A stretch of DNA of 64,000 nucleotides, taken from the NCBI GenBank assembly GCA_964635075.1, contig CAZWMN010000009.1, positions 7,269-71,268 of the forward strand, written 5' to 3'. The notes under the pieces are model-generated. The model had not been told where the DNA came from, did not search any database, and was given only the letters and a program-made list of their open reading frames with translations. Origin of the DNA: an uncultured Pirellulales bacterium. Lineage in GTDB: Bacteria > Planctomycetota > Phycisphaerae > Sedimentisphaerales > Anaerohalosphaeraceae. Positions 2,419 to 64,000 of this stretch are shown here, one piece after another. The position numbers and the translations under genes are program-made. Within the stretch, counting starts at the first letter, position 1; each line of letters starts with the position of its first letter.

Positions 2419-2442
2419 GTTATCACCATGATCTAAAAGCAG

Positions 2443-22310: not shown

Positions 22311-22386
22311 TTTAAATAATTCTTTCCCGGCTATCAGACTTTCTTTCCAATTTGCAAATTTTATTATTCTTTGATTTCTTATCAAA

Positions 22387-23910: not shown

Positions 23911-23941
23911 TTTTAACAGTTCCTTTTCCACGCCTGCTTTT

Positions 23942-29202: not shown

Positions 29203-29221
29203 AAACAAGGAACCACAGATT

Positions 29222-34423: not shown

Positions 34424-34468
34424 GCAAAAAAATACCGGGCCTGAGACGTTACGAACGTCTCAGGCCCG
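34424..34468 (-). terminator. strong intrinsic terminator (minus strand)
   Basis: On the minus strand: ccgggcctgagacgt-tcgta-acgtctcaggcccgg followed by tattttttt. There is no T-run on the plus strand. Confidence 0.65.
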
Positions 34469-34469
34469 G

Positions 34470-34682
34470 CTGGAGGAGGAGGAAAGAGTTTATCGATTCG
34501 CGGATGGTCGTCCGCGGTTCTTTTTATAGTCGGGCCGATTGTCCGTAAGGACGTATTGACCCGACTGGAGGAGGAGGAAAGAGTTTATCGATTCGCGGAT
34601 GGTCGTCCGCGTTTCTTTTTATGTCGGGCCGATTGTCCGTAAGGACGCATTGACCCGACTGGAGGAGGAGGAAAGAGTTTTA
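34470..34682. repeat. tandem repeat, 95/94-bp unit, about 2.25 copies
   Basis: Units start at about 34470, 34565 and 34659 (ctggaggaggaggaaagagttt...). Each unit carries the hairpins cgcgga-N6-tccgcg and gtcggg...cccgac. Confidence 0.9.
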
Positions 34683-48337: not shown

Positions 48338-48365
48338 GTCATTCCGGATTTAATCCGGAATCCAG
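48338..48365. repeat. short palindromic repeat, ATTCC-N-GGAAT family
   Basis: gtcattccggatttaatccggaatccag, the reverse orientation of the copies at 2444 and 2620. Confidence 0.8.
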
Positions 48366-48427
48366 CCCGTAGGGTAGGCCGTGCCCACGCAGTTTTTGTA
48401 GGGGCAACCGGCGGTTGCCCTTGTGTT

Positions 48428-48850
48428 CTACGCCAGCTTATACGCAATTTGCTCGTCTAAAATATCTTTGACCGTCAGCGCGATAATACTCTTGCCCGTC
48501 TTCTTGAAAAACGCCCCTATCTCGCTCATCGCGTCCGACGAAAAATCAAACGACACAAAAAATCCCTTCGTCCGGTCTTCACGCATCATCGCCGCCTCGA
48601 ATGCGTCAATATCCGGCCGCCCCACCTTCTCCTTCTGCTTGACCTGGATCGGATACCACACGTCCATAAACTCCAATTCCCCCTCTTTCCGCTTCGGCGC
48701 CGCCGACACCGGGTAAATCCGCCCATCGATCCCCATATCCCCCACCTGCGCCTTATTCGGTATTCCCCCAATCGCAATCACCGCCCAGTTCTCAAACTCG
48801 AACGGCGGAAGCTCACGCAGCTTGTCCATTGACCACGGCAAATCACGCAC
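48428..48850 (-). CDS. Mrr-cat/PD-(D/E)xK restriction-endonuclease-domain protein, possibly the C-terminal remnant of a methyltransferase-nuclease fusion
   Basis: The FEFENWAV...GDMGIDG...IQVKQ pattern matches the nuclease module found at the C-terminus of some N6/N4 DNA methyltransferases. Confidence 0.55.
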   Translation of the reverse strand: MRDLPWSMDKLRELPPFEFENWAVIAIGGIPNKAQVGDMGIDGRIYPVSAAPKRKEGELEFMDVWYPIQVKQKEKVGRPDIDAFEAAMMREDRTKGFFVSFDFSSDAMSEIGAFFKKTGKSIIALTVKDILDEQIAYKLA

Positions 48851-48856
48851 CCCATA

Positions 48857-48962
48857 AGCTCTCCCCCTGTAAAGGGGGAGTACCGCGAATAAGCCAACCC
48901 AAGCTCTCCCCCTGCAAAGGGGGAGTACCGCGAAGCGGGGAGGGGGTATTATTCATCCCGCC
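48857..48962. repeat. agctctccccctgcaaagggggagtaccgcgaa... repeats (one partial and one full copy)
   Basis: Partial copy at 48857-48889 and full 62-bp copy at 48901-48962. The same 62-bp unit recurs at 49364-49424. Confidence 0.85.
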
Positions 48963-49348
48963 TAAGGCGTTCCTCTTTTCTCCTGCCATCCAAAATGTTT
49001 TCGTATCTGATTCAGCACTTCTTGGGGATTATCGAATACCCAGTGATTCACAAACCGCAGCACCAAAACACCATATTGTTTTAGAAACAAATCCCGTTCC
49101 CGGTCATATTCAATCGCCTCGGCATTAAAATGCGGAGCGCCATCCAGTTCTATTGCCAGCCGTTCCGCCGGACAGTAAAAATCAAGAATATAGCCGCCAA
49201 AGCTGTGCTGTCGTTTAAACCGCCTGCCGTCAAGCTGTTTACTTTTCAAATAGCTCCACATCTTCGCTTCAGCCGGTGTCAACGCGTTTCGCAATTCTCG
49301 TCGAAACGTTTTCATCTCTGGATGATTATTCAAACATTGCTTGTCCAT
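48962..49348 (-). CDS. DUF559 (Vsr-like) endonuclease-domain protein
   Basis: LTPAEAKMWSYLK...RFKRQHSFGGYILDFYCPAERLAIELDG...D..RD..L...G..VLRF, the diagnostic DUF559 pattern. Start taken at MDKQC. Confidence 0.8.
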   Translation of the reverse strand: MDKQCLNNHPEMKTFRRELRNALTPAEAKMWSYLKSKQLDGRRFKRQHSFGGYILDFYCPAERLAIELDGAPHFNAEAIEYDRERDLFLKQYGVLVLRFVNHWVFDNPQEVLNQIRKHFGWQEKRGTP

Positions 49349-49363
49349 AATCTCTCTCAAATT

Positions 49364-49424
49364 AGCTCTCCCCCTGCAAAGGGGGAGTACGGCGAAGCCG
49401 GGAGGGGGTGTCATTCATCCCGCC
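49364..49424. repeat. 62-bp direct repeat partner flanking the DUF559 gene
   Basis: agctctccccctgcaaagggggagtacggcgaagccgggagggggtgtcattcatcccgcc matches 48901-48962. Confidence 0.85.
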
Positions 49425-49483
49425 AAAAGTGAACCTCACTTTCTAGATCCATCCAAAACAATATCATATTCTTTCGAAATTGC

Positions 49484-50257
49484 TTACAATCCCTCGAAGC
49501 CACATCGCAGACGATGTCGTTGCAAAAACTCTGGTTTTGGTAAATGTTCAATGGGTTTCCTAAACTGTTTGGTATTGTTTAATAAAACTATAATAAACTG
49601 ACTTGCGCGAGGATATTTCTTCAAAATCGTAAGATCATCTGAAAGAGATAAATATCCCTTTTCAAATAACGCATCATGAAATTTACAAAGGCACATGATA
49701 TTCGACAAGAAACCCCGACACTCCGCATCCTCTGCCCAACCTACAACGTGACTGGTCACCAATAAGGAAACATCATTCACATCACATAAGGCGCATGTTG
49801 AAGAATAATTTATTAGTGTTAACTCCCTGAGCCTATCCTGCCCTCGTCGTCTACGTGATATGGCAAGTTCATCTCCAGTGTCGATGCATCCAATTCGCAG
49901 ACGGTTTGCTTTTACTAAAGAATCAATCCCTTCATCAGTTCCTTCGAAAGTCTCAATATCTACAATATCTACGGATGTTCGTATCTTCTCCCTGCCCTTA
50001 GACGTAATGTGCCATACACGGCGAGCCTTCTCGACATATCCTAATTTTACCATATATCTATTTACCACTTCACGCAAACTTGCGCGTCCTTGTTCAGAAA
50101 GTTGTTGACCTATACGCTTCTCCATGGCTTGATAAATGTCAGCCATTTTCGCGTCTCCCCCATTGTTTTCGATTGCATGAAGAACTACAGGAACTTGATC
50201 TTGCCGGGAAAACCCGGCTTCCGATGCAGTTACTCCATATTGTTGTGTTGGGCTCAT
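49484..50257 (-). CDS. HNH_2-type endonuclease with N-terminal winged-helix (Mrr_N-like) domain
   Basis: CALCDV...LLVTSHVVGW...NIMCLCKFHDALFEKGYL fits the PF13391-type HNH. The N-terminal region resembles Mrr N-terminal wHTH. Confidence 0.65.
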   Translation of the reverse strand: MSPTQQYGVTASEAGFSRQDQVPVVLHAIENNGGDAKMADIYQAMEKRIGQQLSEQGRASLREVVNRYMVKLGYVEKARRVWHITSKGREKIRTSVDIVDIETFEGTDEGIDSLVKANRLRIGCIDTGDELAISRRRRGQDRLRELTLINYSSTCALCDVNDVSLLVTSHVVGWAEDAECRGFLSNIMCLCKFHDALFEKGYLSLSDDLTILKKYPRASQFIIVLLNNTKQFRKPIEHLPKPEFLQRHRLRCGFEGL

Positions 50258-50274
50258 GTTTCAACCTTTTTGTG

Positions 50275-50403
50275 TTAAGTTTTTGCACGATTGCGGTTGC
50301 TGTTAAACGGCGGGTCAATATAAATCAAATCCACGCACTCGCCCGGCAGCTTCTTCAATTGTTCCAGATTATCCCCGCAATACACCACCCGCGTATCAAC
50401 CAC
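50275..50403 (-). pseudogene. N-terminal stub of a beta-class N6/N4 DNA methyltransferase
   Basis: VYCGDNLEQLKKLPGECVDLIYIDPPFNS carries motif IV (DPPF). It is followed by a stop after 9 more codons, so the rest of the methyltransferase is missing. Confidence 0.55.
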
Positions 50404-50590
50404 CGCCGACGGCTTGCCCGTATGTAGCACAGTCTCCTGTAGCACAGCCGCCCCCGGCTGTGATATTTCCGATGAAATAGGAGCCGTCTGATGTAGGGGC
50501 AGACCCCCGTGTCTGCCCGAATGGGCCTTTTGCCCTTTAACTTTTGCCTTTTTTTCTACTGCCTTCTTCTTCGCCATTTTGTATTCCCTT

Positions 50591-50614
50591 GTCATTCTGG
50601 ATTTAATCCAGAAC
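50591..50614. repeat. short palindromic repeat, ATTC-N-GAAT family variant
   Basis: gtcattctggatttaatccagaac. Confidence 0.7.
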
Positions 50615-50660
50615 CCAAACTATACTGCCTGCTGGCTACTGCCTTCTCCCCTTTTCTTTC

Positions 50661-50699
50661 AATCATCAATCGAAAATCGTCAATCGTCAATCGTCAATT
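50661..50699. repeat. heptamer tandem repeat (aatcRtc)n
   Basis: aatcatc aatcgaa aatcgtc aatcgtc aatcgtc aatt. This is the reverse complement of the (attgacg)n tract at 62264-62298. Confidence 0.85.
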
Positions 50700-50899
50700 C
50701 TACCCCTTCAGTCTAAACCATTCAGCCCAATTTGCAAGTGCCCATCGTCAAAAAACTGTCGTTTTGGACTTGATCTCAAATCAAGAATTAAATTCCGTAG
50801 GAACAAACTGTAGTAATCTATGGTGTTATTCTCTGGAAACCCATTCTTTCTCACTTAAATAAATCCTTATGTTTCCAATCATGCAGTCATTTGATATCA

Positions 50900-53125
50900 T
50901 TAAGCGTTTTCTTGAGGGCGATAATGTACACTTAAAATACTATATGGATATTCATTTCTATCAATATTGACACCTATTATCAAACAACTATGTACATGGC
51001 TCTTAGAGAATATATTATCTGCAAGATTATTCATGTAATTATATCGGTTCTCTTTATTTGCCTCTCGGTATGCTACTAATGCTACCGCCTCATCCCTCCA
51101 ATTAGCTGGCAAGCAAACCGCTGAGTTTATATGCTCAGGTGTCTGCCAATTCTTCTTGACATGTTTCTTTATTGACTTGAAATTTTTAGTTATATTTAGT
51201 TGGTCATCAGGGCTTATATTGAGAAGCATAACAGATGCTTCCAACCAGCTATGGGGTGCTACTTGCTCAATTCTTCTTCGTATATCAGACCACCACTTAG
51301 TTATTCTCAAGCTTGGCTTCTTAATGTGTTCGTCCCGCGCTAATGCGATATAATAATCATCGATATCTTTCGATATTCCTGTAAGCATCAACCTAGTCTT
51401 GCCAATTTCAACGTCTCCAATATTCAATCCTGTCTCGAGATATAGTCCAAGTAAATCTAATTCGTCCCCATGATATATGGCTTTCCCTTCAAGTTCAGTC
51501 CGACGCATTAGATAGTGAATTATTTCACTGCTGGTAAGCAAATCAAATATAACTTGTAAATCTGCCAATAATATCGTTGGTGCAACCGGTAAACAGTCAA
51601 TTAGCCACCCTGTTTTTTTGATTTGCATGATATTGGTTTGTATTGTTGCAAACTGTTCCAATGTGACAGAAAGTCGAATATATTTATGAATGTTATTAAT
51701 GTTAAAGGGCAATTGTTTGCCAAGAGCATCTTCGCTATGGATAGTTTTAAACTTCTTAATCCTTTCAAATAGACGATACGATTGATTTGAAGGTTCAATT
51801 ACAAGCTCTTCAATATGTTGCTTTACTCTTTTTGGCGCACCTCTTAAAGCAGGCTTAGAGATTCTTCCAGATTTTGCTTCGATGAATATAAGATAAGAAT
51901 CTATTTGGACTATAAGATCGTTTTCATATTGTATTCCCGACTCAACCCATTTGAAATTCTTTATTATTTTGCTCTTTGGAAAGGTTTTCTGGAAAAGCTC
52001 ATATATTTCTTCTTCTAAGAACTGTGCCCTGCGAGTATTGATTTTCTTTCTAGCCTCTTCGTTATCAACTATCAAACCGTCCATTATCTCAAAAATATAA
52101 CTAAAAAATACTTGGGGTATAGAACTGAAGTATTTACTGTCTGAAAGTTTCACAAAAGGCCTTGTCCAGACCGGATTGTCCATGAAAACATGTTCTCTGT
52201 CTGCATTTTTTAAGTCGCCAGGTTGAATGCTTAACTTCGTCAATATTCCATCAAGAATTCTTTTGTCTAATTTACATCTTAATGCAAGCTCTTTTGTCGA
52301 ATATGTGAAAAAGTCGGGAAGCCGAAGGTCAGAGTAACTCAAAATGAGTTGAAGAACACCTTCTAAGGGCATTTTCTTTACTTTAATAAATTCAATAAGT
52401 CTTTGTGGGGAATCTTTCATGCTTGGAAATATTTCATAATACTTTTTTACAACATTTTCAATTTCTTTCTCCTTGAATACTAAATGTAAACGATTCCGAT
52501 ATTCATTTACTTTGATTTCCATATCAGAAATCAACGTTTTAATTAATTCAATGATATTTGTTGCAGTTATACCATGTTGTTTTTCATATAGAGAGTCAAG
52601 CGGGGCATACATTTTTGTTGCGGTATCTATCACTTGTCTATAATGTCCCCAATTACGTACATATTGTGTATTCTGTCTTATATTTTCTTGTAAAGATAAA
52701 ACGGCTTTTTCTTGTTTCGTATTCGCTTGTTGTATTTGAACTAATCTTTTTTGAGAAAAAGAGGTTGATACTTTAATTAAAGAATCCCATATATCTTGGA
52801 TAAACTGTGGTTGTGCTGGAGTATATGATATTTTATCTTTTGGAAGACCTAATAAAAGTGCCTGTGCTATTTCTACATGTGCTTGAGTAAGCGGTTGAGC
52901 ATCGCCTTTCTTCCTTTTTTCTTCTTCGTTTACACCCCTAAATAGACCATATAAAGATAATACTGATAATAAATGTAACGGATCATAAGAGCTAAATAAA
53001 TTCAATAAGTGACCTAAAGTATCTGCGAATTCTTTTTCATAATCAAGGCCTGATTTTATCAAACTGTCCCTAAAGACTTCTTTCGGTACATCTTTAAATG
53101 GATTATCGTATTTATAAAACTTCAA
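50900..53125 (-). CDS. 741-aa uncharacterised protein with central PD-(D/E)xK/NERD-like motif
   Basis: Long, strongly AT-rich ORF with a TTG start and aaggtg SD. The core YENDLIVQIDSYLIFIEAKSGRI fits D...(D/E)xK. No P-loop and no TM segment. Confidence 0.75.
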   Translation of the reverse strand: MKFYKYDNPFKDVPKEVFRDSLIKSGLDYEKEFADTLGHLLNLFSSYDPLHLLSVLSLYGLFRGVNEEEKRKKGDAQPLTQAHVEIAQALLLGLPKDKISYTPAQPQFIQDIWDSLIKVSTSFSQKRLVQIQQANTKQEKAVLSLQENIRQNTQYVRNWGHYRQVIDTATKMYAPLDSLYEKQHGITATNIIELIKTLISDMEIKVNEYRNRLHLVFKEKEIENVVKKYYEIFPSMKDSPQRLIEFIKVKKMPLEGVLQLILSYSDLRLPDFFTYSTKELALRCKLDKRILDGILTKLSIQPGDLKNADREHVFMDNPVWTRPFVKLSDSKYFSSIPQVFFSYIFEIMDGLIVDNEEARKKINTRRAQFLEEEIYELFQKTFPKSKIIKNFKWVESGIQYENDLIVQIDSYLIFIEAKSGRISKPALRGAPKRVKQHIEELVIEPSNQSYRLFERIKKFKTIHSEDALGKQLPFNINNIHKYIRLSVTLEQFATIQTNIMQIKKTGWLIDCLPVAPTILLADLQVIFDLLTSSEIIHYLMRRTELEGKAIYHGDELDLLGLYLETGLNIGDVEIGKTRLMLTGISKDIDDYYIALARDEHIKKPSLRITKWWSDIRRRIEQVAPHSWLEASVMLLNISPDDQLNITKNFKSIKKHVKKNWQTPEHINSAVCLPANWRDEAVALVAYREANKENRYNYMNNLADNIFSKSHVHSCLIIGVNIDRNEYPYSILSVHYRPQENA

Positions 53126-53259
53126 ATTGACACCTTCGAATCTTTAATTTTACATAAGGAAGGGAAATTTCCCGCACCCAATTTTCTCTGTTTTTTCTTG
53201 TCTCACCATAGCTTCAGCGACGGCGGACTTGTCCTTCGTAGCCTTGTGCGAAGAAGGAT

Positions 53260-54380
53260 CGCCCAATTTTTCTTTTTATTTTTCTTGTCCGACTCGTCCC
53301 ACATGTCCGACCTGTCCGAAAAGTCCGACTTTTACTTTTTTCCCTTGCGCCACCGACGATGATTTTCCCGCACACCTTTCGCCCATATTATACCCTATTT
53401 CTCTCTTTTTCAAACCCCCTTTTTCCCACTTTTGCCGTCTCGCTCGGACCGGCGGGCGGATGATTTCTCGCAGCATAACTATGGCTTAGCCACTTTTGGG
53501 CGGCTGATAAGCCGCAAGGAGGGAGATCGGTCTATTTTCAGCTTTCCGCTGCCGCGATAGCGGTATGGAACAATTTCTGCGGACAGCATAGAAGCTCGCT
53601 TCGAGAATGGCCGCGGGAATTGGGCTAAAGACGATTCGCAGAATCGCTGCGGAAAGCTCTCTGTGCCGCCCTGAGTCCTCTGAGGCAAAAAAATCCGTGA
53701 AAATCCGTGTTAATCCGTGGTTTATGTTATTTCGACACAAGTGCGATTGCACAATCTTGCTATCTCTAAAAATTCCATAAATTTTCTTCTCATTGTCTCA
53801 CAAGCACTTACGTTTCGCGTTAGCGTCCCGGCGCGCCGGGGTTCGACACGAACACGCAACTCCGCCCTATATAGGAGGCGCCTCTTTTGCGCCCCAGAAA
53901 GGAGCATGACATGTCACAGTGATTTCATCAACCGCGGCTTGTCCGCTCAATGCGATTGAATAATCATTAATCATTTATCACTAATCATTTGATAGCGCAG
54001 CGATGCCGCGCGCACCCACTACAAAACAGGTTTTAAAATGCTGTCAAAAGTGAGTCAAAATATGACAAAAAAAGCCAATTCAAACCGACTTGTCGCGACA
54101 AGTCGTCCCGAATCCCCTTTATGGGGTGAGGGACCTGATGATCTCAGTCGTCGGCTCTGCCGACTCCATACTTTCTTGTCCCGCCATAGCCTTGGCGACG
54201 GCGGATGCCATTTTCTTTTTCCCTTTTTACTTATCTCTGTGCAATCTGTGGAATCTGTGGTTCCGTCTGTTTTTACCAAACAAACCCAATTTTTTCACGA
54301 CCAAATATGCGTTATCAATATCAAAAACGCAGAAATGAAGGCCAAAAACCGACCCAAAAAAACGAAACGAACCCAATTAT
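53260..54380. repeat. left arm of about 1.1-kb imperfect inverted repeat (noncoding, modular)
   Basis: Blocks in the order a-f mirror blocks at 57615-58660. Examples are gatgccgcgcgcacccactacaaaacaggttttaaaatgctgtcaaaagtgagtcaaaatatgacaaaaaaagccaattcaaacc and ...ttccgcagcgattctgcgaatc.... Confidence 0.8.
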
Positions 54381-54388
54381 GGATAACT

Positions 54389-54652
54389 TTACTTGTATCC
54401 TTCGACGTGATTTTGGGTATATTTTTCTATCGCTTTTTCCAGGTCCACATCGTTGACATTGGCTAATGTACACAGCCAAGCCAAGACATCGGCGAATTCT
54501 TCTTCTTTGTTTTTGTGGTCGTCACCGGTCAATGCCGTCGCCAACTCGCCGACTTCTTCGACAAACCACATAAACGTCGCCGCGGTACCGCGCTCGCGGT
54601 CACGCTTGCCGTATTTTTTATCGATAAAATTTTGAAATTCGCGCAGTTCCAT
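54389..54652 (-). CDS. MazG-like nucleotide pyrophosphohydrolase (small, single domain)
   Basis: EEVGELATAL and EEFADVLAWLCTLA metal-binding helices. Start taken at MELREFQ. Confidence 0.7.
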   Translation of the reverse strand: MELREFQNFIDKKYGKRDRERGTAATFMWFVEEVGELATALTGDDHKNKEEEFADVLAWLCTLANVNDVDLEKAIEKYTQNHVEGYK

Positions 54653-54809
54653 AATTGTTTTTCCCACGGCCAAGCTTATCCTGCCCACGCAAGTCCTTCG
54701 ACAGGCTCAGCGACTGTCTTAAAAATCAAGCGATTTTTATTAAATTCGGAATCCGAAGCACGAAATCCGAAACAAATTCAAAATCTGAAATAACCCAAAT
54801 TCAAAACAT

Positions 54810-54837
54810 CTGGATTCCGGGTCAAGCCCGGAATGAC
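54810..54837. repeat. short palindromic repeat, ATTCC-N-GGAAT family
   Basis: ctggattccgggtcaagcccggaatgac. Confidence 0.8.
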
Positions 54838-54953
54838 AATGAGGAAACACAGATTCTTTGTTTGAAAGTAAAAACGAAAAAACAGGTGGGCTAAATGCCC
54901 ACCCGACATTAGTCAAAACAGTTGTGATGCCGCGATACGAATGGCCCGGGTAC

Positions 54954-55355
54954 TTATTCCCAGCCGAGCATCTTGCTGAGTTTTGCTCTTTCGTAAATCG
55001 CTTTCACCTCGTCGGTGGCCCTGCGGCAGACTTCTTCCATCTTCATACTGAACGGAGCATTGTTAGTCTGCTCGGCCAGGTGCAGATGACTGTGCAGCGG
55101 GCCATCGACCGCTTCAATGATTTCCAGCAGCGTGATGCTTTCAGCCGGGCGGGCCAGGAAAAATCCGCCTCGCGGGCCGCGCTTGCTGCGAAGCACATTG
55201 GCCCGAACCAGTTGTTGCAGAATCTTGAGCAGGTATTCAAGCGGAATGGTGTATTCCTTGGAAACCCGGGCCGCCAAAACCGCACCTTCTTTGTAGTTCA
55301 TTGCGATGTAGCCGACCGCCACGAGAGCATAACCAGTGGATCTGCTGATTTTCAT
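54954..55355 (-). CDS. Rrf2-family transcriptional regulator
   Basis: MKISRSTGYALVAVGYIA... wHTH start typical of Rrf2/IscR/CymR. It is divergent from metX. Confidence 0.85.
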   Translation of the reverse strand: MKISRSTGYALVAVGYIAMNYKEGAVLAARVSKEYTIPLEYLLKILQQLVRANVLRSKRGPRGGFFLARPAESITLLEIIEAVDGPLHSHLHLAEQTNNAPFSMKMEEVCRRATDEVKAIYERAKLSKMLGWE

Positions 55356-55799
55356 ATTCAGACCTCCTGAATATATTGAAAGTTATGTGGTTCGTTTCGC
55401 CGATTGTTTTTCTACTATCGGACCTTGTATTCTATCTATTCTATGCCATTTTCCACGACAGAGATTCTACACATTCTGTCTTACCTGCCTCTGTATAGTA
55501 CAATTATCAGAAAAAAGTTCAAGAGTAGCAAGGGAAATTTTATCGAAAAACAAAAATTTTGATTAAAAAGACTATGTATATCTCGTATGGTAAAATGAGT
55601 CATATAAGATGTAAGGCGAATTTCACTGCAATTTTTGAAGCCAAAACCATCATTTTTTCATTAAAAAACGAGGTTTATGAGAAAACAAGCAAATTTGAGC
55701 TACACTTTCATTTGGGCATATAGGAGGGGTCGAGAGGCATCCTTGTTCTCTTTCATTAAGCCCTTTACAAGATGTTATAGAGCATTTACAATTTCCCGG

Positions 55800-57611
55800 A
55801 TGGAAAAAGACCTGAAAAACTCTGTTGGCGTTGTTGAAAGCTACAAGGTTCGCGTGGTGGAGCAGAACAGTCCGCTCGTTCTGCAAAGCGGTAAGACACT
55901 GGGCCCCATCGATGTAGTTTATGAAACCTACGGACAGCTAAGCCCTGACAAAGATAATGCGGTTTTGATTTGCCATGCGTTGTCCGGCGATGCCCATGTC
56001 GCCGGCTATCACAGTCCCGGCGACCGCAAAGCCGGCTGGTGGGATATTATGATTGGGCCGGGCAAACCCATTGATACCAACAAGTACTTTGTCATCTGCT
56101 CCAATTTTCTGGGCGGATGCAGCGGCACGACGGGACCGTCGGATATCAACCCGGCAACGGGAAAACCTTATGGTCTGGACTTTCCGATTATCACCATCGA
56201 AGACATTGTAAAAGTTCAGAAACTTCTATTGGACAAACTCGGCATCTCGCGTCTGCTTTCCGTCATCGGCGGTTCGATGGGCGGAATGCAGGTGCTGCAA
56301 TGGGCGATTGCGTATCCGGAGTTTGTGGATTCGGCGATGTGCATCGCGGGCACGACACGGCTGAACACGCAGTCCATCGCGTTTGACGCGGTGGGGCGAA
56401 ACGCCATTCTGGCCGACCCGAATTTCAATAATGGCCAATACCACGGCAGCGAAGCTCCCGCCCGCGGCTTAGGCATCGCCCGGATGATCGGGCATATTAC
56501 GTATTTGTCCGAACAGTCCATGCGCGAAAAATTCGGACGCCAGCTCTACGACGCGGAAAAGTACAAATATGATTTTGATTCCGAATTCGCCGTGGAGACT
56601 TATCTGGATTATCAGGGACAGAGTTTTGTCGAACGGTTTGACGCTAACAGCTATCTATATATCACCAAGGCGATGGACTATTTTGACCTGAACCGTGAGT
56701 ATGGCTCGGTTCGCAGCGCCTTTGCCGGGACGCGCAGCCGGTTTCTGGTCATCAGTTTTTCGAGCGACTGGCTGTTTCCGTCGGCGCAGTCCGAGGAAAT
56801 TGTCGAGGCGCTGAGCGCCGAAGGCAAGGACGTGACCTACTGCAATATCCACTCTCCTTACGGACACGACGCCTTTCTGCTGGAGTGTCCGTTGCAGGAC
56901 AAGCTCATCGCGGGATTTCTTGAATTGACGCTGCATCGCATCCGCACGGGACAGAAATGTCTTTGTGAAAAAGCCCCGTCCAAGCGGCTTAAAGCCATCG
57001 AACGCTCCAAACGGGCGAGGGTGGATTATGAATTGATTGACGCGGTGATTGCATCAAACAGCCGGGTGCTGGATTTAGGCTGCGGCGACGGCGAACTGCT
57101 GGCCCGCCTCGTGACGGATAAAAATGTCGATGGGCTGGGCATTGAGCTGGACGAAGACCTTGTGGTGCATTGCGTCGGACGAGGCTTGTCGGTGCTGCAT
57201 CGGGATATCGAGCGGGGATTATCGCAGTTTGCCACCGACAGTTTTGATTACGTGATTCTGTCGCAGACTTTGCAGACGCTGCGCGACCCGGAAAAGGTCA
57301 TCAGGGAACTGCTTCGCGTCGGCAAGAAGGTGATTGTAAGCTTTCCCAATTTCGCCCACTGGGCGTGTCGGTTGCAGATGTTCTTTGGCGGTCGTGCGCC
57401 GCAGACGCGGCAGTTGCCGTTCCGCTGGCACAATTCGCCTAATATACATTTTCTGTCGCTCAAGGATTTTGACCGTTTTTGCGCCGAGTTGAATATTCAT
57501 ATCGAAAAGAAGATCCCACTGGGCCGATTCAGTACTGTAGCGGTCAGACTGCTGCCCAATCTGCTGGCTTCACAAGCCGTCTATATCACCAGCAAATACC
57601 AAAACGGGTAG
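55800..57611 (+). CDS. metX: homoserine O-acetyltransferase fused to MetW
   Basis: MetX alpha/beta-hydrolase part (GGSMGGMQVLQW nucleophile elbow, SDWLFP). It continues without a stop into a MetW-type methyltransferase-fold domain (VLDLGCGDGELLARL). Start taken at MEKDL. Confidence 0.9.
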   Translation: MEKDLKNSVGVVESYKVRVVEQNSPLVLQSGKTLGPIDVVYETYGQLSPDKDNAVLICHALSGDAHVAGYHSPGDRKAGWWDIMIGPGKPIDTNKYFVICSNFLGGCSGTTGPSDINPATGKPYGLDFPIITIEDIVKVQKLLLDKLGISRLLSVIGGSMGGMQVLQWAIAYPEFVDSAMCIAGTTRLNTQSIAFDAVGRNAILADPNFNNGQYHGSEAPARGLGIARMIGHITYLSEQSMREKFGRQLYDAEKYKYDFDSEFAVETYLDYQGQSFVERFDANSYLYITKAMDYFDLNREYGSVRSAFAGTRSRFLVISFSSDWLFPSAQSEEIVEALSAEGKDVTYCNIHSPYGHDAFLLECPLQDKLIAGFLELTLHRIRTGQKCLCEKAPSKRLKAIERSKRARVDYELIDAVIASNSRVLDLGCGDGELLARLVTDKNVDGLGIELDEDLVVHCVGRGLSVLHRDIERGLSQFATDSFDYVILSQTLQTLRDPEKVIRELLRVGKKVIVSFPNFAHWACRLQMFFGGRAPQTRQLPFRWHNSPNIHFLSLKDFDRFCAELNIHIEKKIPLGRFSTVAVRLLPNLLASQAVYITSKYQNG

Positions 57612-57614
57612 ATT

Positions 57615-58660
57615 TTCCTTTGGGCAAAATTGGGTTCGTTTCGTTTTTTTGGGTCGGTTTTTGGCCTCCATTTCCGCGTTTTTGATATTGATAACGCATA
57701 TTTGGTCGTGAAAAAATTGGGTTCGTTTTTTTTGAATAAACGAGAGACCAGAGATAAGAGATCAAGACCACGGTCAAACAATCCTTCGGCATTGCTCAGG
57801 ACAAGGTTTGGCCGTGCCACCCACCCCTTCAGGTCGTTGGGTTCGATTGGGTTTGAATTGGCTTTTTTTGTCATATTTTGACTCACTTTTGACACGTTTT
57901 TAAAATCTGTTTTGCAGTGGGTGCGCGCGGCATCTATGAGATGCTCTGCGAGAAGCCAGAAGCCAGTAGTCTGAAGTCAGAATATGGTCGGCCTGCGGCC
58001 GGGCTGATCTTACACAGTACTATGACACGTCAAACTCCTTCAAAATAGTTTTTAGTTTTGAGTTTCTGGATTCCCGCCTGTGCGGGAATGACAGCACCAC
58101 AAGACGCAACCTATGCGTCTCCTATATGGGGCGGACTTGCACGGCGGTGTCGAAAATTCGTGATTTTTCGGGGGCAGAAAAGCCGTAAGTCGTTATCGGA
58201 TAGAGAGTTAAAAATTTTTAGAATTTTCAGGAATAGCAGGATAGTGCAATCGCTATTAGAACCGAGCGAATAGTTGATAGTGAATAGAAAAAGAGGATTT
58301 TAGACGGGATTTACAGGATAAACAAGATTTTTTGCCACCGAGGGCGCAGAGCGGCACAGAGAGCTTTCCGCAGCGATTCTGCGAATCTTCTTTGGCTCCA
58401 TTTCCGCGGCTTTACTCCAAACGAGTTTGTCTGTCAGCCCCAAAAACGGTTCCATCCCGCTGTCGGATTCGGCAGGCTCACCACAGGCGCGGCAGCGGAA
58501 AGCGGAAAATTGTATATTGATAATCCCTTGGGGATAAATTGTAGATTGTAAAATGTAGAGGAAGATTGTATAATTTAGGGGAAATCGGTTTTTGGCATAT
58601 TTAAGAATCATCTTTGATCAGCAGGGCGAAAGAAAAAAGTTAAAAGAAAATTGGGCGAGA
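57615..58660. repeat. right arm of about 1.1-kb imperfect inverted repeat
   Basis: Reverse-complement blocks of 53260-54380 in mirrored order. It also contains one ATTCCC-N8-GGGAAT palindrome (58066-58092) that is absent from the left arm. Confidence 0.8.
58546..58574 (+). promoter_or_regulatory. sigma-70-type promoter candidate with extended -10
   Basis: TTGTAA, a 17-nt spacer ending in TG, then TATAAT. It lies about 175 nt upstream of the 58751 ORF. A homologous gtataat lies in the left arm (53387-53392, minus strand) facing the 741-aa gene. Confidence 0.45.
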
Positions 58661-58750
58661 AAGTATTTGGTATCTTAAATTGATTTGAGTCTCTCTGATT
58701 AAATATGTCGGGGAATTTCAATCAGGAGCAATATAGAAGGATAATCATAA

Positions 58751-59860
58751 ATGGGTCCAGCAATCCTTGTTGATAAAAGTACACTTCAATTACTTTCTGT
58801 CAGAGAAGTTTTTTATTTACGCCAATATTATAATGTAGTCTTATGTTCAACTCTATATTATGAAATTCTTGGAGATATAACAAAACATAAAGATTATGAA
58901 GCATCTAAAAAGGAAGTACTAAAGGTATCAAGGAAAATATATGGGCATTCCACCTGCTTTACAACAAAATATCAAGAAATGTTGGAAGCAGAATTAATTG
59001 GGTATGAAATTCCTATGGATAGAAGACCATTATTATCAGGTGGAAAGGAAGTTGTAGATGGTAATGGAGAAAGAGTCGTGTTGTTTGATGAACCACATGA
59101 ATATGAGGCACTCAGAAAATGGACTAGTGGGGAATTTAGCAAAGAAGAAATGTCTTGGGCTGAGGATTATAGAAAATCAATTCAGCAAATCAAATTAGAT
59201 ATTGCCAAGCTAAATTCTGAATATATGGATGCTCGCGATGCAAGCGAGCTAAAAAAATATATAGATAAATTAATAGATGACTCTGATAATCAGTTAGAGT
59301 ATTTACAATTTATATTAAAAAAAACAGGGAAAGACCAACCATTTAGAGATAAGATATGCAACATCTGGCTTAATAGGGGGATGCCTAGAATAAAAGATTT
59401 TGCTCCATATTCTTATTATTTCTTAACAGTTTCATTTGCCTTTTATTGTGGAGTAGCAAAAGATATATTTGGCACTAAAAATACAAATATTATTGACTTG
59501 GAATATATATACTATTTACCATTTTGTAGTGTATTTACTTCTAATGATAAGTTTTTAAAGACAATATCAAATATATTTCTATCTGATGATCAGGATTTTA
59601 TATGGGGAGAGGAGCTTAAAAATGATTTAAAGGCTTTCTGTGATTATTGGAATGAAAAAGGGGAAAAAGCAAGATTTAGTTATCAAGAAGAGTATGGAGG
59701 TTATCCGCCTGATATTCCAAATTCTATAACATGTAAAATATGGGGTAAATGGGCTGGAGAAAGAAGAAAAAAAGAAAAAATGACATCTGAAAGAAACCAG
59801 GAAATTATGAAAGAAATTGAACCTCTACTGGATCAATTTAAAAAGAAAGAGAAGGGGTGA
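58751..59860 (+). CDS. 369-aa uncharacterised protein, PIN-like ends with a large helical insert
   Basis: Strongly AT-rich. The N-terminus ILVDKSTLQLL...LYYEILGD and the C-proximal IIDLEYIYYLPFCSVFTSNDKF resemble the first and last acidic-residue strands of PIN nucleases. The assignment is tentative. Confidence 0.7.
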   Translation: MGPAILVDKSTLQLLSVREVFYLRQYYNVVLCSTLYYEILGDITKHKDYEASKKEVLKVSRKIYGHSTCFTTKYQEMLEAELIGYEIPMDRRPLLSGGKEVVDGNGERVVLFDEPHEYEALRKWTSGEFSKEEMSWAEDYRKSIQQIKLDIAKLNSEYMDARDASELKKYIDKLIDDSDNQLEYLQFILKKTGKDQPFRDKICNIWLNRGMPRIKDFAPYSYYFLTVSFAFYCGVAKDIFGTKNTNIIDLEYIYYLPFCSVFTSNDKFLKTISNIFLSDDQDFIWGEELKNDLKAFCDYWNEKGEKARFSYQEEYGGYPPDIPNSITCKIWGKWAGERRKKEKMTSERNQEIMKEIEPLLDQFKKKEKG

Positions 59861-59873
59861 GAGGGAGTTTTTT

Positions 59874-60461
59874 ATGAAAGAAAACATTTTATTTACCAAA
59901 TGTAAAAATAGTGCAAAACTAAAAAGTAAAATAGTATTTCCAAAAGAAATATATGATACAAAGCAGCAGCTTACTTTTTTTGATTTCAATTACGCAGATA
60001 AATACAAGCAGTTTTTGTGTGAGACATTCTATCTAAACAAAGAGGTATTTAACCATACAATGGCAGGAGTAATCATTGGTTTCGGACCAGATAATATTAA
60101 AAAGATAAGCAGTTCAGTCAAAAAGATATTGAATGAACTTAAGCGAAAGTACATATTTATTGAAGCCGGAGGGAAAACATTTATACAATGCGTTAAATAT
60201 CATACAGGTAAATATTGTGCAACAAATTCCGATGCACTCTCTATCTTAAAAAACATTATGTTAAATACAAATACTGTCGTTGTTTTCAATGAATTTTCAA
60301 AATGTAAAACAAAAGGCGACAAAAAATCTCTTATGAGATGTATTATTAAAATAGGAGACCGTAAAGAAAATCCTGTTCCTGACTTGATATTTATTGACTA
60401 TGCCAAGTTTTATTACGAATCAAAAAGTCTATTATTGCCTTATATAAGGTGCATTGTATAG
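59874..60461 (+). CDS. 195-aa uncharacterised protein, partner of the PIN-like ORF
   Basis: SD gagggag 7 nt upstream of the ATG and a 13-nt gap after the previous stop. It shares the AT-rich composition and has no recognisable motif. Confidence 0.65.
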   Translation: MKENILFTKCKNSAKLKSKIVFPKEIYDTKQQLTFFDFNYADKYKQFLCETFYLNKEVFNHTMAGVIIGFGPDNIKKISSSVKKILNELKRKYIFIEAGGKTFIQCVKYHTGKYCATNSDALSILKNIMLNTNTVVVFNEFSKCKTKGDKKSLMRCIIKIGDRKENPVPDLIFIDYAKFYYESKSLLLPYIRCIV

Positions 60462-60509: not shown

Positions 60510-60860
60510 ATGCCGCCAAAATTTGTAAAGACCGTTCGAGAAGAGTTGTATTACGAGTATGCGGTAATAAAATCAAAAATCAAAGTGCAAATATCAAAAT
60601 TAAGGAAGCCTTCGGCGACTGTTTAAGCAGACCCCTCACCCGCAAGGGGATTCGGGGTGACGGGATGGGTTGACGTGAGGATTTGTCGCGATATACAAGG
60701 TTGGTGGCGGGTAAGTATCTCAAGGAATTGTTTGACCTGCATGACAGCCGGGGGACGCTGGATGTGAGCGTTGACAATCTGACGACGCTATGCCCGGCGT
60801 GCAAGAATCCGCCGGTCTGCCGGCAGTGGGAGAAGGTCAGAGAATCCCTATGGGACAAGT
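60510..60860 (+). pseudogene. fragments of an HNH endonuclease gene
   Basis: A 38-codon head (MPPKFVKTVREELYYEYAVIK) resembles the start of a common HNH family. A later frame gives LHDSRGTLDVSVDNLTTLCPACKN, a decayed HNH C-terminus. The two pieces are out of frame. Confidence 0.35.
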
Positions 60861-60920
60861 CCCTGGGGGATAAATCCCTGGGGGATAAATCCCTGGGGGA
60901 TAAATCCCTGGGGGATAAAT
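60846..60920. repeat. 15-bp tandem repeat ccctgggggataaat, four perfect copies plus one diverged
   Basis: Seen directly. Each unit contains the small palindrome ggga-taaa-tccc. A single related copy lies at about 58529-58548. Confidence 0.9.
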
Positions 60921-61016
60921 TGACGTGTTTTTGTCTTGAGAGCGTGTTTTAGAAAATGTGTCGGCCCTTCGATTAAAAACCTGCTTGTCGGCGACAAGGC
61001 ACCCAGCAGTAATTTC

Positions 61017-61301
61017 CTATGCTGCCATCAGGGGGGCCAGGTCGGAGCGTTTTAACGGATGGAGGCCAAGCTCACGAAGCAGGCGATTAAAGGCTGTCAA
61101 AGTCAGTTTATCCGGCGCTACAATCTCAATGCCGATAGGTCTGCCATCGCGGGTAAAATCAATCACAAACCCCGGTTCCACTCTTTTGGTTCGGCAGCTT
61201 TTGTCTTTTGGTTTGCGCGGTAAATAATAATACGCAGCCAGCGGACGACCGTGCCGAAACGTGACTTCCAAATAAGACTCATTCATTTTAAGATACCCCA
61301 C
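61017..61301 (-). CDS. DUF2283-family protein (putative antitoxin)
   Basis: YLEVTFRHG...VIDFTRDGRPIGIEI pattern typical of DUF2283. An alternative start is MNESY at 61286. Confidence 0.7.
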   Translation of the reverse strand: MGYLKMNESYLEVTFRHGRPLAAYYYLPRKPKDKSCRTKRVEPGFVIDFTRDGRPIGIEIVAPDKLTLTAFNRLLRELGLHPLKRSDLAPLMAA

Positions 61302-61554
61302 AGGGATAGGCGGTTATTATGACCAAGTGTTTCGTACTAAAATCCGGCTCTACGATAATTTCCCACATCCGTCTGCGATGCGAGGCAATGACGACCCACC
61401 GTCCTTCAACGATATCGGGCTTATAATTTTTGGGGTGTTCGAGCATTGTTCGCAAGTCCAATTCCGAAAAGCCGCGATCAAGCATTCGCTTGAATACATG
61501 CGGGCTAAGTTCCAGTTCCCAATCCCACCATTGCGGCCAACGACGGCGTATCAT
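61288..61554 (-). CDS. DUF4258-family protein (putative toxin)
   Basis: HVFKRMLDRGFSELDLRTMLE...IIVEPD...LVIITAY pattern typical of DUF4258. It overlaps the downstream DUF2283 gene. Confidence 0.7.
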   Translation of the reverse strand: MIRRRWPQWWDWELELSPHVFKRMLDRGFSELDLRTMLEHPKNYKPDIVEGRWVVIASHRRRMWEIIVEPDFSTKHLVIITAYPCGVS

Positions 61555-61798
61555 AACCTCGCAAACATTCTATCACAAAACTTACACTGTTTCAATCTCC
61601 CACACACTTTACCCGATTCTATGCTATATGTGGCCACCAGTTCCAGCAAGGTAATTTTCCTGAAAAATTGGAGACAGCGGGGAGTCTCACGAAGAAACCG
61701 AAGAAGCCTCTTGACCGAAAGGGTATTGTCTTAACTGCATTAAGAATAAAGGGTTATGGTTTTTAGGTAATTTTTGATAAAATTTTCATAAAAAGTGC

Positions 61799-61826
61799 TT
61801 GACGGGTGGTCGAATTTAGATAGACT
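61799..61826 (+). promoter_or_regulatory. candidate rRNA promoter with A/T-rich UP-like element
   Basis: TTGACG, a 16-nt spacer, then TAGACT. It is preceded by aatttttgataaaattttcataaaaagtgc. Confidence 0.4.
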
Positions 61827-62087
61827 GGAGTAGTTCAACAGGAGTTGTAAAAACAGGTAGTCAGGGTGTGGAAAGAACGGAAACGTCCTGCGATAGGCCG
61901 TGTAGTAAGTGAGTAGGCCTTCGCAAGCCCGGCCAAAACCGTCGGGAATGTAAAAAAGGGACGAATAAAGGGTTGAGAAAAATCCTGAGAAAACTGAAGT
62001 TTTTTAATTTGACTGCTCGGCGGTGAGTGAATAACTCCCGAACATTCAGCAATGTCGCTGATATCGCAAGAGCAGCGACATTTTTTT

Positions 62088-62098
62088 TGCTCTTTGAA
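62088..62098 (+). promoter_or_regulatory. boxA-like antitermination element in the leader
   Basis: tgctctttgaa against boxA TGCTCTTTAACAA. It is preceded by a boxB-like hairpin tgtcgctg...cagcgaca. Confidence 0.5.
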
Positions 62099-62183
62099 TG
62101 ATGTATAAGTAAGATAGTTGAGTCTTGAGAGCCGACTGGCCGGCAAGGACAGCGGTGTTCGAGTCGAAGACGGCTGAATAGTC

Positions 62184-62258
<75 letters not shown>

Positions 62259-62263
62259 TTGAA

Positions 62264-62298
62264 ATTGACGATTGACGATTGACGATTGACGATTGAAT
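62264..62298. repeat. heptamer tandem repeat (attgacg)x4 plus attgaat
   Basis: Seen directly between the two tRNAs. Confidence 0.9.
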
Positions 62299-62395
62299 CC
62301 AATGGGTGAGTATCAGGCGATAACCGGGCTTGATGCGATTGATGATACGGATAAATAGTCAATAATCATTTATCAATAATCAATTGCAAGGGCCC

Positions 62396-62468
62396 GGGGA
62401 CGTAGCTCAGTTGGGAGAGCGCCGGCTTTGCAAGCCAGAGGTCGTGGGTTCGACTCCCATCGTCTCCA
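62396..62468 (+). tRNA. tRNA-Ala (anticodon UGC)
   Basis: Acceptor ggggacg/cgtctcc with the G3:U70 pair, anticodon loop ttTGCaa and T loop ttcgact. There is one C-A mismatch in the anticodon stem. Confidence 0.9.
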
Positions 62469-62536
62469 CTGCGGCGTTAGAACAAAATAAAGGCTTATGC
62501 GGTTTTGCGGCGGTATGAGCAGAACCGAGGCAATAA

Positions 62537-62549
62537 CGCTCTTTTACAA
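62537..62549 (+). promoter_or_regulatory. second boxA-like element in the tRNA-23S spacer
   Basis: cgctcttttacaa. Confidence 0.4.
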
Positions 62550-62725
62550 GTACATAGCGGATGCGATATTTTAGATTGTAAGATGGACAATCTCTCATTT
62601 TGTTTTTGAATTACCGGGTTGTTTATCTTCGCAATCTGCAATTAGCGCTTAATTATGTGCCAAACCTGTGCACGACAGATTCATCTGAATCTGTCAGCGG
62701 CGGCCAGTCAATCTTCGATTGATAT

Positions 62726-64000
62726 GGTCAAGTTACTAAGGGTGTATGGGGAATGTCTTGGTATCGAGAGGCGATGAAGGACGTGGTGGACTGCGATAAG
62801 CCCGGGGCAGGTGTCTAACAACCGTTAATCCCGGGATGTCCGAATGGGGAAACCCGTCGGGAACGGGCAACCGATTCCCGTCATCCACAGATGAATTCAT
62901 AGTCTGTGTGAAGCGAACGCAGGGAACTGAAACATCTCAGTACCTGCAGGAAAAGAAATCAACCGAGACTCCGTCAGTAGCGGCGAGCGAACGCGGACCA
63001 GCCCAAACCAAGCTTCGGCTTGGGGTTGCGGGCGCCACATCAGCAAAAGAAGAGCCAGTTGAACAGTCTGGAAAGTCTGACCACAGAAGGTGATAGTCCT
63101 GTAGGCCAAAGCCCGACTTTTGCGTGGCGTACCAGAGTAGCATGGAGCTCGTGAAACTCCGTGTGAAGCCGGGGAGCCCACTCTCCAAGGCTAAGTACTA
63201 CTCGATATCCGATAGTGAACCAGTAAGGCGACTGAACGATGAAAAGAACCCCTACTAGGGGAGTGAAAAGGACCTGAAACCATACACTTACAAGCTGTAG
63301 GAGGCCTATGTTCCGACTTGTCGGAAAATGGCTGACTGCGTGCCTTTTGCATAATGAGCCGGCGAGTTATCTTTTACGGCAAGGTTAAGCACCTCAGGTG
63401 CGGAGCCGCAGCGAAAGCGAGTCTGAACAGGGCGAACAGTCGTAGGGGATAGACGCGAAACCACGTGATCAACCCATGGCCAGGTGGAAGGGGATGTAAA
63501 AGTCCCTGGACGACCGAACCCAGGAACGTTGAAAAGTTACGGGATGAGCTGTGGGGAGGAGTAAAAGTCTAATCAAACGTGGAGATATCTCGTTCTCTCC
63601 GAAATAACTTTAGGGTTAGCCTCGAGTCATTGTCTTGCGGGGGTAGAGCTACTGATTGGAGACAGGGGTCCACCAGACTACCTACTCTTACCAAACTCCG
63701 AATACCGCAGGATGTATCTCGGGAGTCAGTCTACGGGCGATAACGTTCGTGGTCGAAAGGGAAAGAACCCGGACCGCCAGCTAAGGTCCCGGATTTTCGC
63801 CAAGTTTAGTATAAGGAAGTCCTATTGCTGTAACAATCAGGATGTTGGCTTAGAAGCAGCCACCATTTAAAAAGTGCGTAATAGCTTACTGATCGAGCAG
63901 TGGGGTGCCGATAATGAACGGGGATAAGCGAAAAACCGAAGCTGCGGGTGTTCTGGGTACTGGGTTCAATGTCTTACGAGACATTGAATCTGGTATCCGA
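62726..64000 (+). rRNA. rrl: 23S ribosomal RNA, 5' part (continues beyond window)
   Basis: Starts ggtcaagttactaagggtgtatgg...gaggcgatgaaggacgtgg. It contains gggaaccgaaacatctcagtacc-type and agtagcggcgagcgaa blocks that are colinear with bacterial 23S domain I/II. Confidence 0.95.

Follow-up and report, generated by a model that had tools for sequence, protein, structure and literature searches.

Long noncoding arrays of short repeats next to variable genes have been described in Neisseria. The neisserial NIMEs are composed of dRS3 and RS repeats, with numerous repeat families of 50-150 bp, and are found next to variable genes. Their repeat number and content vary from strain to strain, and incoming DNA has been suggested to recombine through them (PMC1797815). 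By definition, each RS unit of a NIME is flanked by dRS3, a 20-bp inverted repeat of the consensus ATTCCCN8GGGAAT (PMC1797815). The Correia elements (CREE) are dispersed short noncoding repeats by genes and are able to donate promoter elements (PMC1797815). The BIMEs or REP clusters of enterobacteria and pseudomonads are extragenic, high-copy mosaics of a few motifs that often lie past gene 3′ ends (PMC2817692, PMC3733652). Here we describe two noncoding arms in a 64-kb stretch of DNA from an uncultured planctomycete; this whole stretch is referred to as the window. The arms flank a core of three genes, mazG, rrf2 and metXW, and separate it from low-GC genes on both sides. They are a variant of the same kind as the elements named above and not a member of the NIME, BIME or MITE families. 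We consider it probable that they are independent polar arrays of lineage-specific intergenic repeat modules, located at junctions between conserved and variable genes.

The left arm (53126-54388, minus strand, reading outward) extends from the stop codon of the mazG gene to the start of a gene encoding a 741-amino-acid protein. The right arm (57612-58750, plus strand, reading outward) extends from the stop codon of metXW to the start of a gene encoding a 369-amino-acid protein. Repeat finding and BLAST within the window revealed that these two mosaic arrays form a colinear inverted match with similarity far above chance. The match is made up of block A (54278-54381 and 57625-57728; 104 nt, 96% identity, E 1e-42), block B (54002-54086 and 57850-57934; 85 nt, 94%, E 1e-30) and block E (53555-53692 and 58328-58465; 138 nt, 80%, E 2e-28). 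Block C′D forms a weaker colinear pair (53743-53891 and 58105-58253), and small colinear pairs were found at 53534-53556 and 58488-58510 and at the outer ends. The longest identical runs between the arms measure ~47 nt in block A and ~43 nt in block B. In the self-comparison of the window the arm blocks occur at no third site. The blocks are separated by unalignable, arm-specific spacers consisting mostly of 7-10-nt tandem repeats, among them TGTCCGACA, AAAATCCGTG, TAATCAT and TCTGTGGAA in the left arm and AGAAGCC, TAGTTTT and ATTGTAG in the right arm. The outward strand of the arms shows the same G>C skew as the co-oriented genes.

Block A begins 10 nt past the stop codon of mazG (54389-54391) and ~14-17 nt past that of metXW (57609-57611). 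At the outer ends the motif GTATAAT is found at 53387-53393 (minus) and 58568-58574 (plus). In the left arm it is directly followed by GGGCGAAAG (53376-53384, minus), which lies right past the -10 box; in the right arm GGGCGAAAG is located ~50 nt further downstream (58624-58632, plus), so the register differs between the arms. The open reading frames (ORFs) of the arms are short. A coding origin of the arms was considered and rejected, as the two longest of the inward ORFs do not share a reading frame across block A. These results agree with the first-pass annotation, which had described inverted blocks in reverse order at 53260-54380 and 57615-58660, noncoding arms and inner ends adjoining the mazG and metXW stop codons. 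Its further claim, that gtataat followed by GGGCGAAAG marks both outer ends, is correct for the GTATAAT motif but not for the spacing of GGGCGAAAG, which is unequal. Since mazG-rrf2 and metXW are oriented away from a shared point, the mirror symmetry of the arms is a consequence of the gene layout, with each core unit having its own array at its downstream end.

The left and right arm copies (winL and winR) were compared with three sediment contigs from JGI, L082, L083 and L084, which were retrieved with a 22-mer of block A, and with the orthologous loci of a close relative (L088) and a more distant one (L090). Block A is the most abundant module of the arrays. It occupies 54278-54381 (minus) in the left arm and 57625-57728 (plus) in the right arm, where metagenome contigs display sharp edges at 57628-57730, corresponding to ~103 nt. 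The block contains two AAATTGGGTTCGTTT direct repeats 87 nt apart with GCGTTTTTGATATTGATAACGC between them, and the 11-nt direct repeat AATTGGGTTCG is present on both sides of the 87-nt core. A tandem form, in which two A blocks are separated by 32 nt, is also seen in metagenome contigs. The identity of block A amounts to 89-97% across five copies, in every pair of copies across loci. In contrast, the identity of C′D falls to 61% between the two arms, whereas the window copies share 69-73% identity with those of L083 and L084. This shows that the arms do not result from a recent local duplication. The two window arms are no closer to each other than to copies at unrelated loci.

In the left arm, block A is followed by a short-repeat module with GGAACCACAGATT and TCTGTGGAA (54215-54264, minus), which is also found in L082, L088 and L090 and at 29209-29253 of the window. 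The CACAGATT module occurs alone at 29203-29247, as a minimal array between a core gene with its stop at 29202 and a low-GC HNH gene that starts at 29248. Block B (left 54002-54086, minus; right 57850-57934, plus) contains TTGACT-17-TAAAAC in the left copy and a promoter-like TTGACT-17-TAAAAT (57878-57906) in the right copy, which shares 97.8% identity with positions 4623-4712 of L088. Block C′D (left 53730-53898, minus; right 58105-58253, plus) is present in both arms and in L083, L084 and L088. It is composed of a GC hairpin followed in order by CTCCTATATrGGGCGGAGTTGC, GTGTCGAA, CGTAAGT, AAAATTTATGGAATTTTT and ATAGCA..ATAGTGCAATCGC. Block E (left 53534-53692, minus; right 58328-58510, plus, matching the left copy) carries a conserved CGCAGCGATTCTGCG hairpin and is missing from L083, L084 and L088.

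The right arm, but not the left, has a REP-type hairpin, GTCATTCCCGCACAGGCGGGAATCCAG, inserted at 58066-58092 (minus). Its sequence fits ATTCCC-N8-GGGAAT, which is the dRS3 consensus of Neisseria; the 28-nt NTS consensus is recognised by the single-stranded DNA nuclease SsnA (PMC1797815, PMC11893778). The hairpin has two mismatches to the 28-nt NTS consensus of PMC11893778. A simple motif scan of the window revealed no GIY-YIG ORF of the ssnA type. Further copies of GTCATTCCCGCACAGGCGGGAATCCAG are located at 2444-2473 and 2620-2649 of the window and at 6403-6431 and 7482-7510 of L083, and a variant is present at 54810-54838. The copy in the right arm has a depth of ~1000-3800 in sediment runs, and sites of this hairpin type reach ~1000-4000 in sediment metagenomes. 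At the far left of the window, a low-GC gene for a BglII-like restriction endonuclease (1891-2418) adjoins a perfect 110-nt direct repeat (2443-2552 and 2619-2728), each copy of which opens with a dRS3-like hairpin.

The outermost module of each arm is promoter-like and is called the P module. In the left arm (53385-53413, minus) it consists of TTGAAA and TATAAT, with the -10 box at 53387-53392, and is followed by ATGGGCGAAAGG and a leader of ~260 nt. The right P module (58546-58574, plus) reads TTGTAA-17-TATAAT, arises from ATTGTAG heptad repeats and precedes a leader of ~175 nt. The consensus scan reported TTGTAA-17-TATAAT at 58546-58574 (plus) and TTGAAA-17-TAATAT at 53413-53385 (minus). 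In an alignment of five P modules, two from the window, one from L083 and two from L088 (its metXW and mazG sides), TATAAT is invariant and TTGnAA is located 15-17 nt upstream of it. Several copies share the motif GAAAATTGGGCG in their leaders, past the -10 box. The window has nine AAATTGGG sites, of which six are located inside the arms, all six oriented outward. The alignment suggests that the P module is a promoter facing the adjacent genes, which are referred to as cargo.

The copy number of the modules was assessed from the depth of sediment metagenome contigs placed on the window, including those of runs X2, X3 and X4. In X3 block A has a depth of 370-680, whereas the neighbouring end of metXW is covered at 9.4 and the spacer downstream at 11.5; in X4 block A exceeds its flanks ~8-fold and in X2 20-35-fold. 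Over these sediment metagenomes its depth is 8-60 times that of the single-copy flanks. The conserved blocks of the left arm reach 5-60 times the baseline in X3 (E 133-187, C′D 93-203, B 70-129, A 587-657), and the left-arm spacers 53474-53516 and 53904-53989 are covered at a depth of 0-6. Every conserved block is a dispersed repeat. The contigs also contain alternative joints between modules, for example 53463-54243 (P to A), 57727-58298 (A to E) and 54072-54278 (B to A). These joints are almost always colinear, have single-copy depth and were seen in several runs. Of the 31-mers of the arms, 10-30% are present in many sediment, peat and groundwater metagenomes.

The first-pass annotation had proposed a search for further copies of the arms, and such copies exist. 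In L083 a queC gene (plus) is followed after ~80 nt by block A, an TTGACGATTGAAAGA module, C′D and a P module with GTATAATATGGACAAAAGG. The cargo beyond this array has a GC content of 0.35-0.40 and comprises a 405-amino-acid protein gene with helix-turn-helix and M78 peptidase domains and a DUF4411/PIN gene. In L082 block A begins 33 nt past a GT1 glycosyltransferase gene and lies at the contig end. The array of L084 comes after a HAD hydrolase gene, comprises A and C′D and stops at a convergent gene. All seven arrays run in the direction of their upstream gene and begin shortly past its stop codon.

L088 contains the orthologous locus of a close relative. Its MetXW (homologue P0121, 622 amino acids) is 99% identical to that of the window, the DNA is 97.7% identical over 54954-57730, and the regions 60791-60951 and 61721-62661 (tRNA-Ile, tRNA-Ala and 23S) are also shared. 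The arm on the metXW side of L088 contains a variant A, block B at 98% identity, a C′D block of the left-arm type and a P module (TTGTAA-17-TATAAT); block E is absent. The change in the array begins after block B. Beyond this arm lie genes for 391-, 199- and 197-amino-acid proteins with GC contents of 0.34, 0.34 and 0.46, which have no similarity to the 369- and 214-amino-acid proteins found at this place in the window, although the conserved flanks are the same. Thus, metXW-A-B and 60791-62661 enclose unrelated small gene sets in the window and in L088. Next to mazG, L088 has retained the inner 59 nt of block A only, together with other modules and a P module reading TTGTAA-17-TATAAT-ATGGGGCG. 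In L090, where MetXW is 85% identical, there is no block A; small shared modules follow mazG, and a TIR-domain gene comes after them. In four metagenome runs covering the core at 10-25x, the cargo regions 51103-52803 and 58474-60174 have a depth of ~0. The window cargo is absent from these related strains.

Comparison with the known systems shows both likenesses and differences. As in NIMEs, multi-copy modules, here of 45-170 nt, form long noncoding arrays whose content differs between the window and L088 and whose neighbours are strain-specific, and a hairpin of the dRS3 consensus occurs in the right arm and at other sites of the window. The alternation of small gene sets between the same flanks resembles the Minimal Mobile Elements of Neisseria, in which these sets often encode restriction-modification systems. 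Unlike the RS units of NIMEs, the arm blocks are not bounded by dRS3-type repeats, since the right arm has a single hairpin (58070-58089) and the left arm has none. The arms also differ from NIMEs in their polarity, in their fixed module order from gene stop to promoter, in their terminal promoter-like module and in their host, a planctomycete. Similar to BIMEs, they are extragenic, high-copy and mosaic and follow gene 3′ ends. BIMEs, however, are built of alternating REP palindromes of 20-40 bp, whereas the arm modules measure 45-170 nt, are mostly non-palindromic and form arrays of up to 1.1 kb; an inverted-repeat scan and folding found no alternating REP palindromes in the arms. MITEs, including the Correia type, have terminal inverted repeats and target duplications, both of which are lacking in block A and in the P module. 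With integrons and CALINs the arms share a conserved noncoding platform, an outward predicted promoter and variable foreign genes, which are often promoterless. In contrast to integrons, no integrase domain was seen in the cargo and its neighbours, and the conserved part of the arms is multi-modular and lies upstream of the cargo. No attC-like imperfect palindromes were seen after the cargo ORFs, without formal attC detection. The arms are placed outside the NIME, BIME and MITE families because they lack dRS3 punctuation, alternating REPs and terminal inverted repeats. What is new in them is that module order and polarity are fixed and that the array closes with a promoter-like module.

We propose the following scheme for these loci. 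The modules have a canonical order, in which block A is located directly past the stop codon of a housekeeping gene and optional modules come next, namely a CACAGATT repeat, the blocks B, C′D and E and short tandem repeats. The last element is the P module (TTGnAA-17-TATAAT) with its leader, which faces the next co-oriented gene. Such arrays occupy the junctions of conserved genes with small, low-GC, strain-variable genes; several of the cargo genes that can be annotated are of nuclease or defence type. As the modules are common to many loci and strains, they would provide portable homology, through which cassettes may be gained, lost or replaced by homologous recombination. The same recombination would reshuffle the array itself, and the outermost module would give captured genes a ready promoter. 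The mosaic structure, the multi-copy status, the polarity, the low-GC variable neighbours and the replacement of cargo together with reshuffling of the array are directly observed. From these we infer the turnover by recombination through shared modules and the driving of the cargo by the P module. The first-pass annotation had offered two copies of one noncoding element with varying cargo as one explanation. This idea is partly supported. The same order and polarity at other loci and the different cargo in L083 and L088 speak for it, while the finding of a mosaic of separately dispersed modules speaks against a single unit. It had also foreseen that the similarity of the arms might dissolve into genome-wide repeats: the blocks are indeed genome-wide repeats, but their conserved order relates them to each other.

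Several points weigh against the proposed scheme. The recombination is deduced from one full-length orthologous contig (L088), short contigs and the distant L090, and seven arm copies only have been recovered as sequence. The excess in depth pools the copies per genome with those of related species. The array in L084 has neither cargo nor P module, which shows that the link to cargo is not obligatory. Promoter activity of the P module is predicted from consensus and conservation alone. The high conservation of block A suggests selection on its primary sequence, for example as a protein-binding site, or a recent active spread, and passive recombination alone explains neither. A bolder explanation would take the arrays as a dedicated, lineage-specific capture-and-expression platform, in which block A would be a protein-recognised docking site or insulator and P a portable promoter and leader, and in which foreign low-GC defence genes would be inserted, swapped and expressed at many sites without an element-encoded recombinase. 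We regard this as doubtful. If true, the platform would serve an integron-like function through another mechanism that has not been described so far.

Another possibility, which we judge to be rather unlikely, is that the arms are part of a family of non-autonomous mobile elements that carry cargo, with block A as one terminus, P and cargo as the body, a transposase or site-specific recombinase encoded elsewhere as the mover and a preference for sites just after genes. The high copy number and sharp bounds of block A, its constant position relative to stop codons, the AATTGGGTTCG direct repeat around the 87-nt core and the tandem A-32 nt-A form are all compatible with such an element. So are the recurrence of AAATTGGG beyond the left cargo (50726-50733) and past the cargo of L083 and the presence in the window of an IS200-like Y1 transposase with 92-nt inverted flanks (29831-30470). 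These flanks, however, are unrelated to the arm modules, terminal inverted repeats and end hairpins are lacking, and block A folds with a z-score of +1.2 relative to shuffled sequences. The flanking repeat AATTGGGTTCG is identical at every copy and is thus not a target duplication. When the far cargo ends were inspected, no att-like motif was found beyond the right cargo, and no recombinase was identified among the screened cargo ORFs, several of which have no family match. The module content varies through colinear deletions and does not behave as a fixed unit. Comparably unlikely is the view that the modules do nothing for the host and are selfish or neutral repeats, which pile up in tolerant intergenic DNA by acquired genes and carry promoter boxes incidentally. 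The spacers are rich in unstable 7-10-nt tandem repeats, REP-like hairpins insert freely, the presence of modules differs between close strains, and the array of L084 has no cargo, all of which neutral repeats would account for. They would not account for the conservation of block A while C′D drifts, for the strict polarity to the neighbouring genes in seven out of seven copies, or for the invariant TATAAT with its upstream TTGnAA in five copies.

The two remaining explanations, a regulatory RNA and an invertible switch, are considerably weaker. An arm could encode a long structured or regulatory RNA acting on the cargo operon, such as an antitermination leader, a small RNA or an antitoxin RNA. 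The conserved position of the arms upstream of foreign low-GC genes, the GAAAATTGGGCG leader motifs conserved past the -10 box in several copies and one small C′D hairpin that keeps its pairing with a different sequence in the right arm would be in line with this. Nevertheless, the Rfam covariance-model scan of the arms detected no credible family at the gathering threshold or at E values up to 10, and the folding z-scores of blocks A, B, C′D and E on the outward strand range from -1.6 to +1.2 and give no structure signal. RNAalifold on 4-5 aligned copies returned covariation terms of ~0, with 1-2 compensatory pairs among 26-38, and the modules are optional and reshuffled. We consider this explanation very unlikely. 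The least probable one, for which hardly any likelihood is left, goes back to the invertible or recombinogenic core raised by the first-pass annotation: the 3.2-kb mazG-rrf2-metXW core would be a switch that swaps the pairing of cargo and core. The inverted blocks A (104 nt, 96% identity) and B (85 nt, 94%) could allow occasional RecA-mediated inversion. Yet no recombinase was identified by Pfam, NCBIfam and PADLOC among the ORFs at ~48.4-61.7 kb, a few small ones of which have no match, and the arms, with C′D blocks of only 61% identity, are as diverged mutually as from copies elsewhere. As both arms face outward symmetrically, an inversion would change nothing functionally, and the same arrangement is present in L088 and in contigs of several runs. 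Among the short contigs compared, no orientation variant was seen. The invertible core is unsupported. The arms are neither a local duplication nor a structured RNA, and an invertible switch is very improbable.

Several other searches of sequence collections were negative. A chimeric six-frame query of the arm blocks had no match among 5.8 billion proteins. No RNA sequencing run was found to contain the arm, and exact look-ups of the MetXW and Rrf2 proteins returned no source contig. An exact 27-mer of block A is absent among GTDB species representatives, three block patterns are absent from IMG/VR, and the right arm has no match in plasmid and phage collections. In 80 related genomes no arm sequence was found near metXW, where synteny is not conserved.

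The core genes between the arms are identified by their Pfam matches, in agreement with the first-pass gene calls. The mazG-family gene (54389-54688, minus; PF03819) is also present in L088 and L090. Next in coordinate order are the gene for an Rrf2-family regulator (54954-55355, minus; Pfam, NCBIfam) and the fused metX-metW gene (55677-57611, plus; Pfam), whose true start is probably ~22 codons downstream of the called one. MetXW is 78-81% identical to proteins of metagenome-assembled genomes of Phycisphaerae, Sedimentisphaerales and Anaerohalosphaeraceae, which places the window in a sediment planctomycete of this lineage. The spacer between mazG and rrf2 (54689-54953) contains very high-copy short repeats and the hairpin at 54810-54838. 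It measures 265 nt in the window versus 33 nt in L088 (1649-1682) and looks like a recent repeat insertion between genes that appear to be co-transcribed.

The genes outside the arms have GC contents of 0.29-0.34, compared with 0.49 for the genome. The left cargo (50900-53125, minus; GC 0.34) encodes a 741-amino-acid protein, a putative PD-(D/E)xK nuclease. It belongs to a widespread family of ~760-amino-acid proteins without a Pfam domain, which occurs in Nostoc, Microcoleus, Desulfobacteraceae and Sedimentisphaerales. The homologues in other taxa have no arms alongside, which indicates that the arms are a property of the host lineage rather than of the cargo. The residues E401, D403, D409, E416 and K418 in the motif VDSYLLLVEAKSG are invariant, and the structural model (pLDDT 86) gave weak Foldseek matches to Nt.BspD6I, an R2 endonuclease domain, Can2 and McrC. 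On the basis of these residues and matches, a PD-(D/E)xK nuclease domain is probable. The right cargo (58751-60461, plus) consists of genes for the 369- and 214-amino-acid proteins with GC contents of 0.31 and 0.29. The 369-amino-acid protein has 1216 representative relatives, and an exact-protein look-up located its gene on one 1.8-kb Logan contig only. Its model (pLDDT 93) has no significant structural match. The label "PIN-like" given to this pair at first pass receives some weak support from Foldseek matches of the N-terminal 90 residues to VapC/PIN proteins at E ~1, and none from Pfam, where the pair has no match. Further to the left lies a defence-type island (48338-50664) with Mrr-cat (48428-48850), DUF559/Vsr-like (48962-49414), HNH/Mrr_N endonuclease (49484-50257) and truncated N6-methyltransferase (50275-50595) genes. 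A single-copy-depth metagenome joint from 48338 to 50664 suggests that related strains lack this island.

Other repeats and genes were noted in the window. The IS200-like Y1 transposase gene (Y1_Tnp, 29937-30371) is flanked by inverted repeats (29831-29922 and 30378-30470) in an arrangement that resembles RAYT/REPIN; the arms differ from a REPIN/RAYT system in that these 92-nt flanks are unrelated to their modules. The transposase gene is preceded by the low-GC HNH gene (29248-29793), which directly follows a core gene, and L082 carries the Y1 flank repeat. Short tandem repeats are frequent in the noncoding DNA of this genome. They include TCAATCG x5.7 (50659-50698) beyond the left cargo and AATCCCTGGGGGATA x5.2 (60843-60920) beyond the right cargo, the latter common to L088. 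In the gap between tRNA-Ile and tRNA-Ala, ATTGACG x4.7 (62264-62296), which is high-copy in metagenomes, and AATAATC x4.4 (62354-62384) were found. The intergenic region 34465-34680 contains a 95-nt unit x2.3 with 96% identity. A gene of ~1.5 kb is present in tandem at 20787-22325 and 22387-23925 (78% identity, GC ~0.42), and its second copy was not called as a single long ORF. The region 62184-64000 contains tRNA-Ile(GAT), tRNA-Ala(TGC) and the 23S rRNA gene. Since there is no 16S gene upstream of the latter within the window, the rRNA genes may be unlinked.

The repeat modules of the arms explain the breaks in short-read assemblies at these loci in such sediment bacteria. Block A can be used as a marker for variable gene cassettes, several of which are of nuclease or defence type here, and its conservation may point to a DNA-binding factor. 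In the concept of NIMEs and Minimal Mobile Elements, noncoding arrays serve as recombination substrates that turn over small accessory and defence genes. A fixed polarity and order and a conserved terminal promoter-like module are not described for these elements. If the reading of the arms as independent polar arrays holds, this concept, so far limited to a few Proteobacteria, would also apply to a lineage of uncultured planctomycetes.

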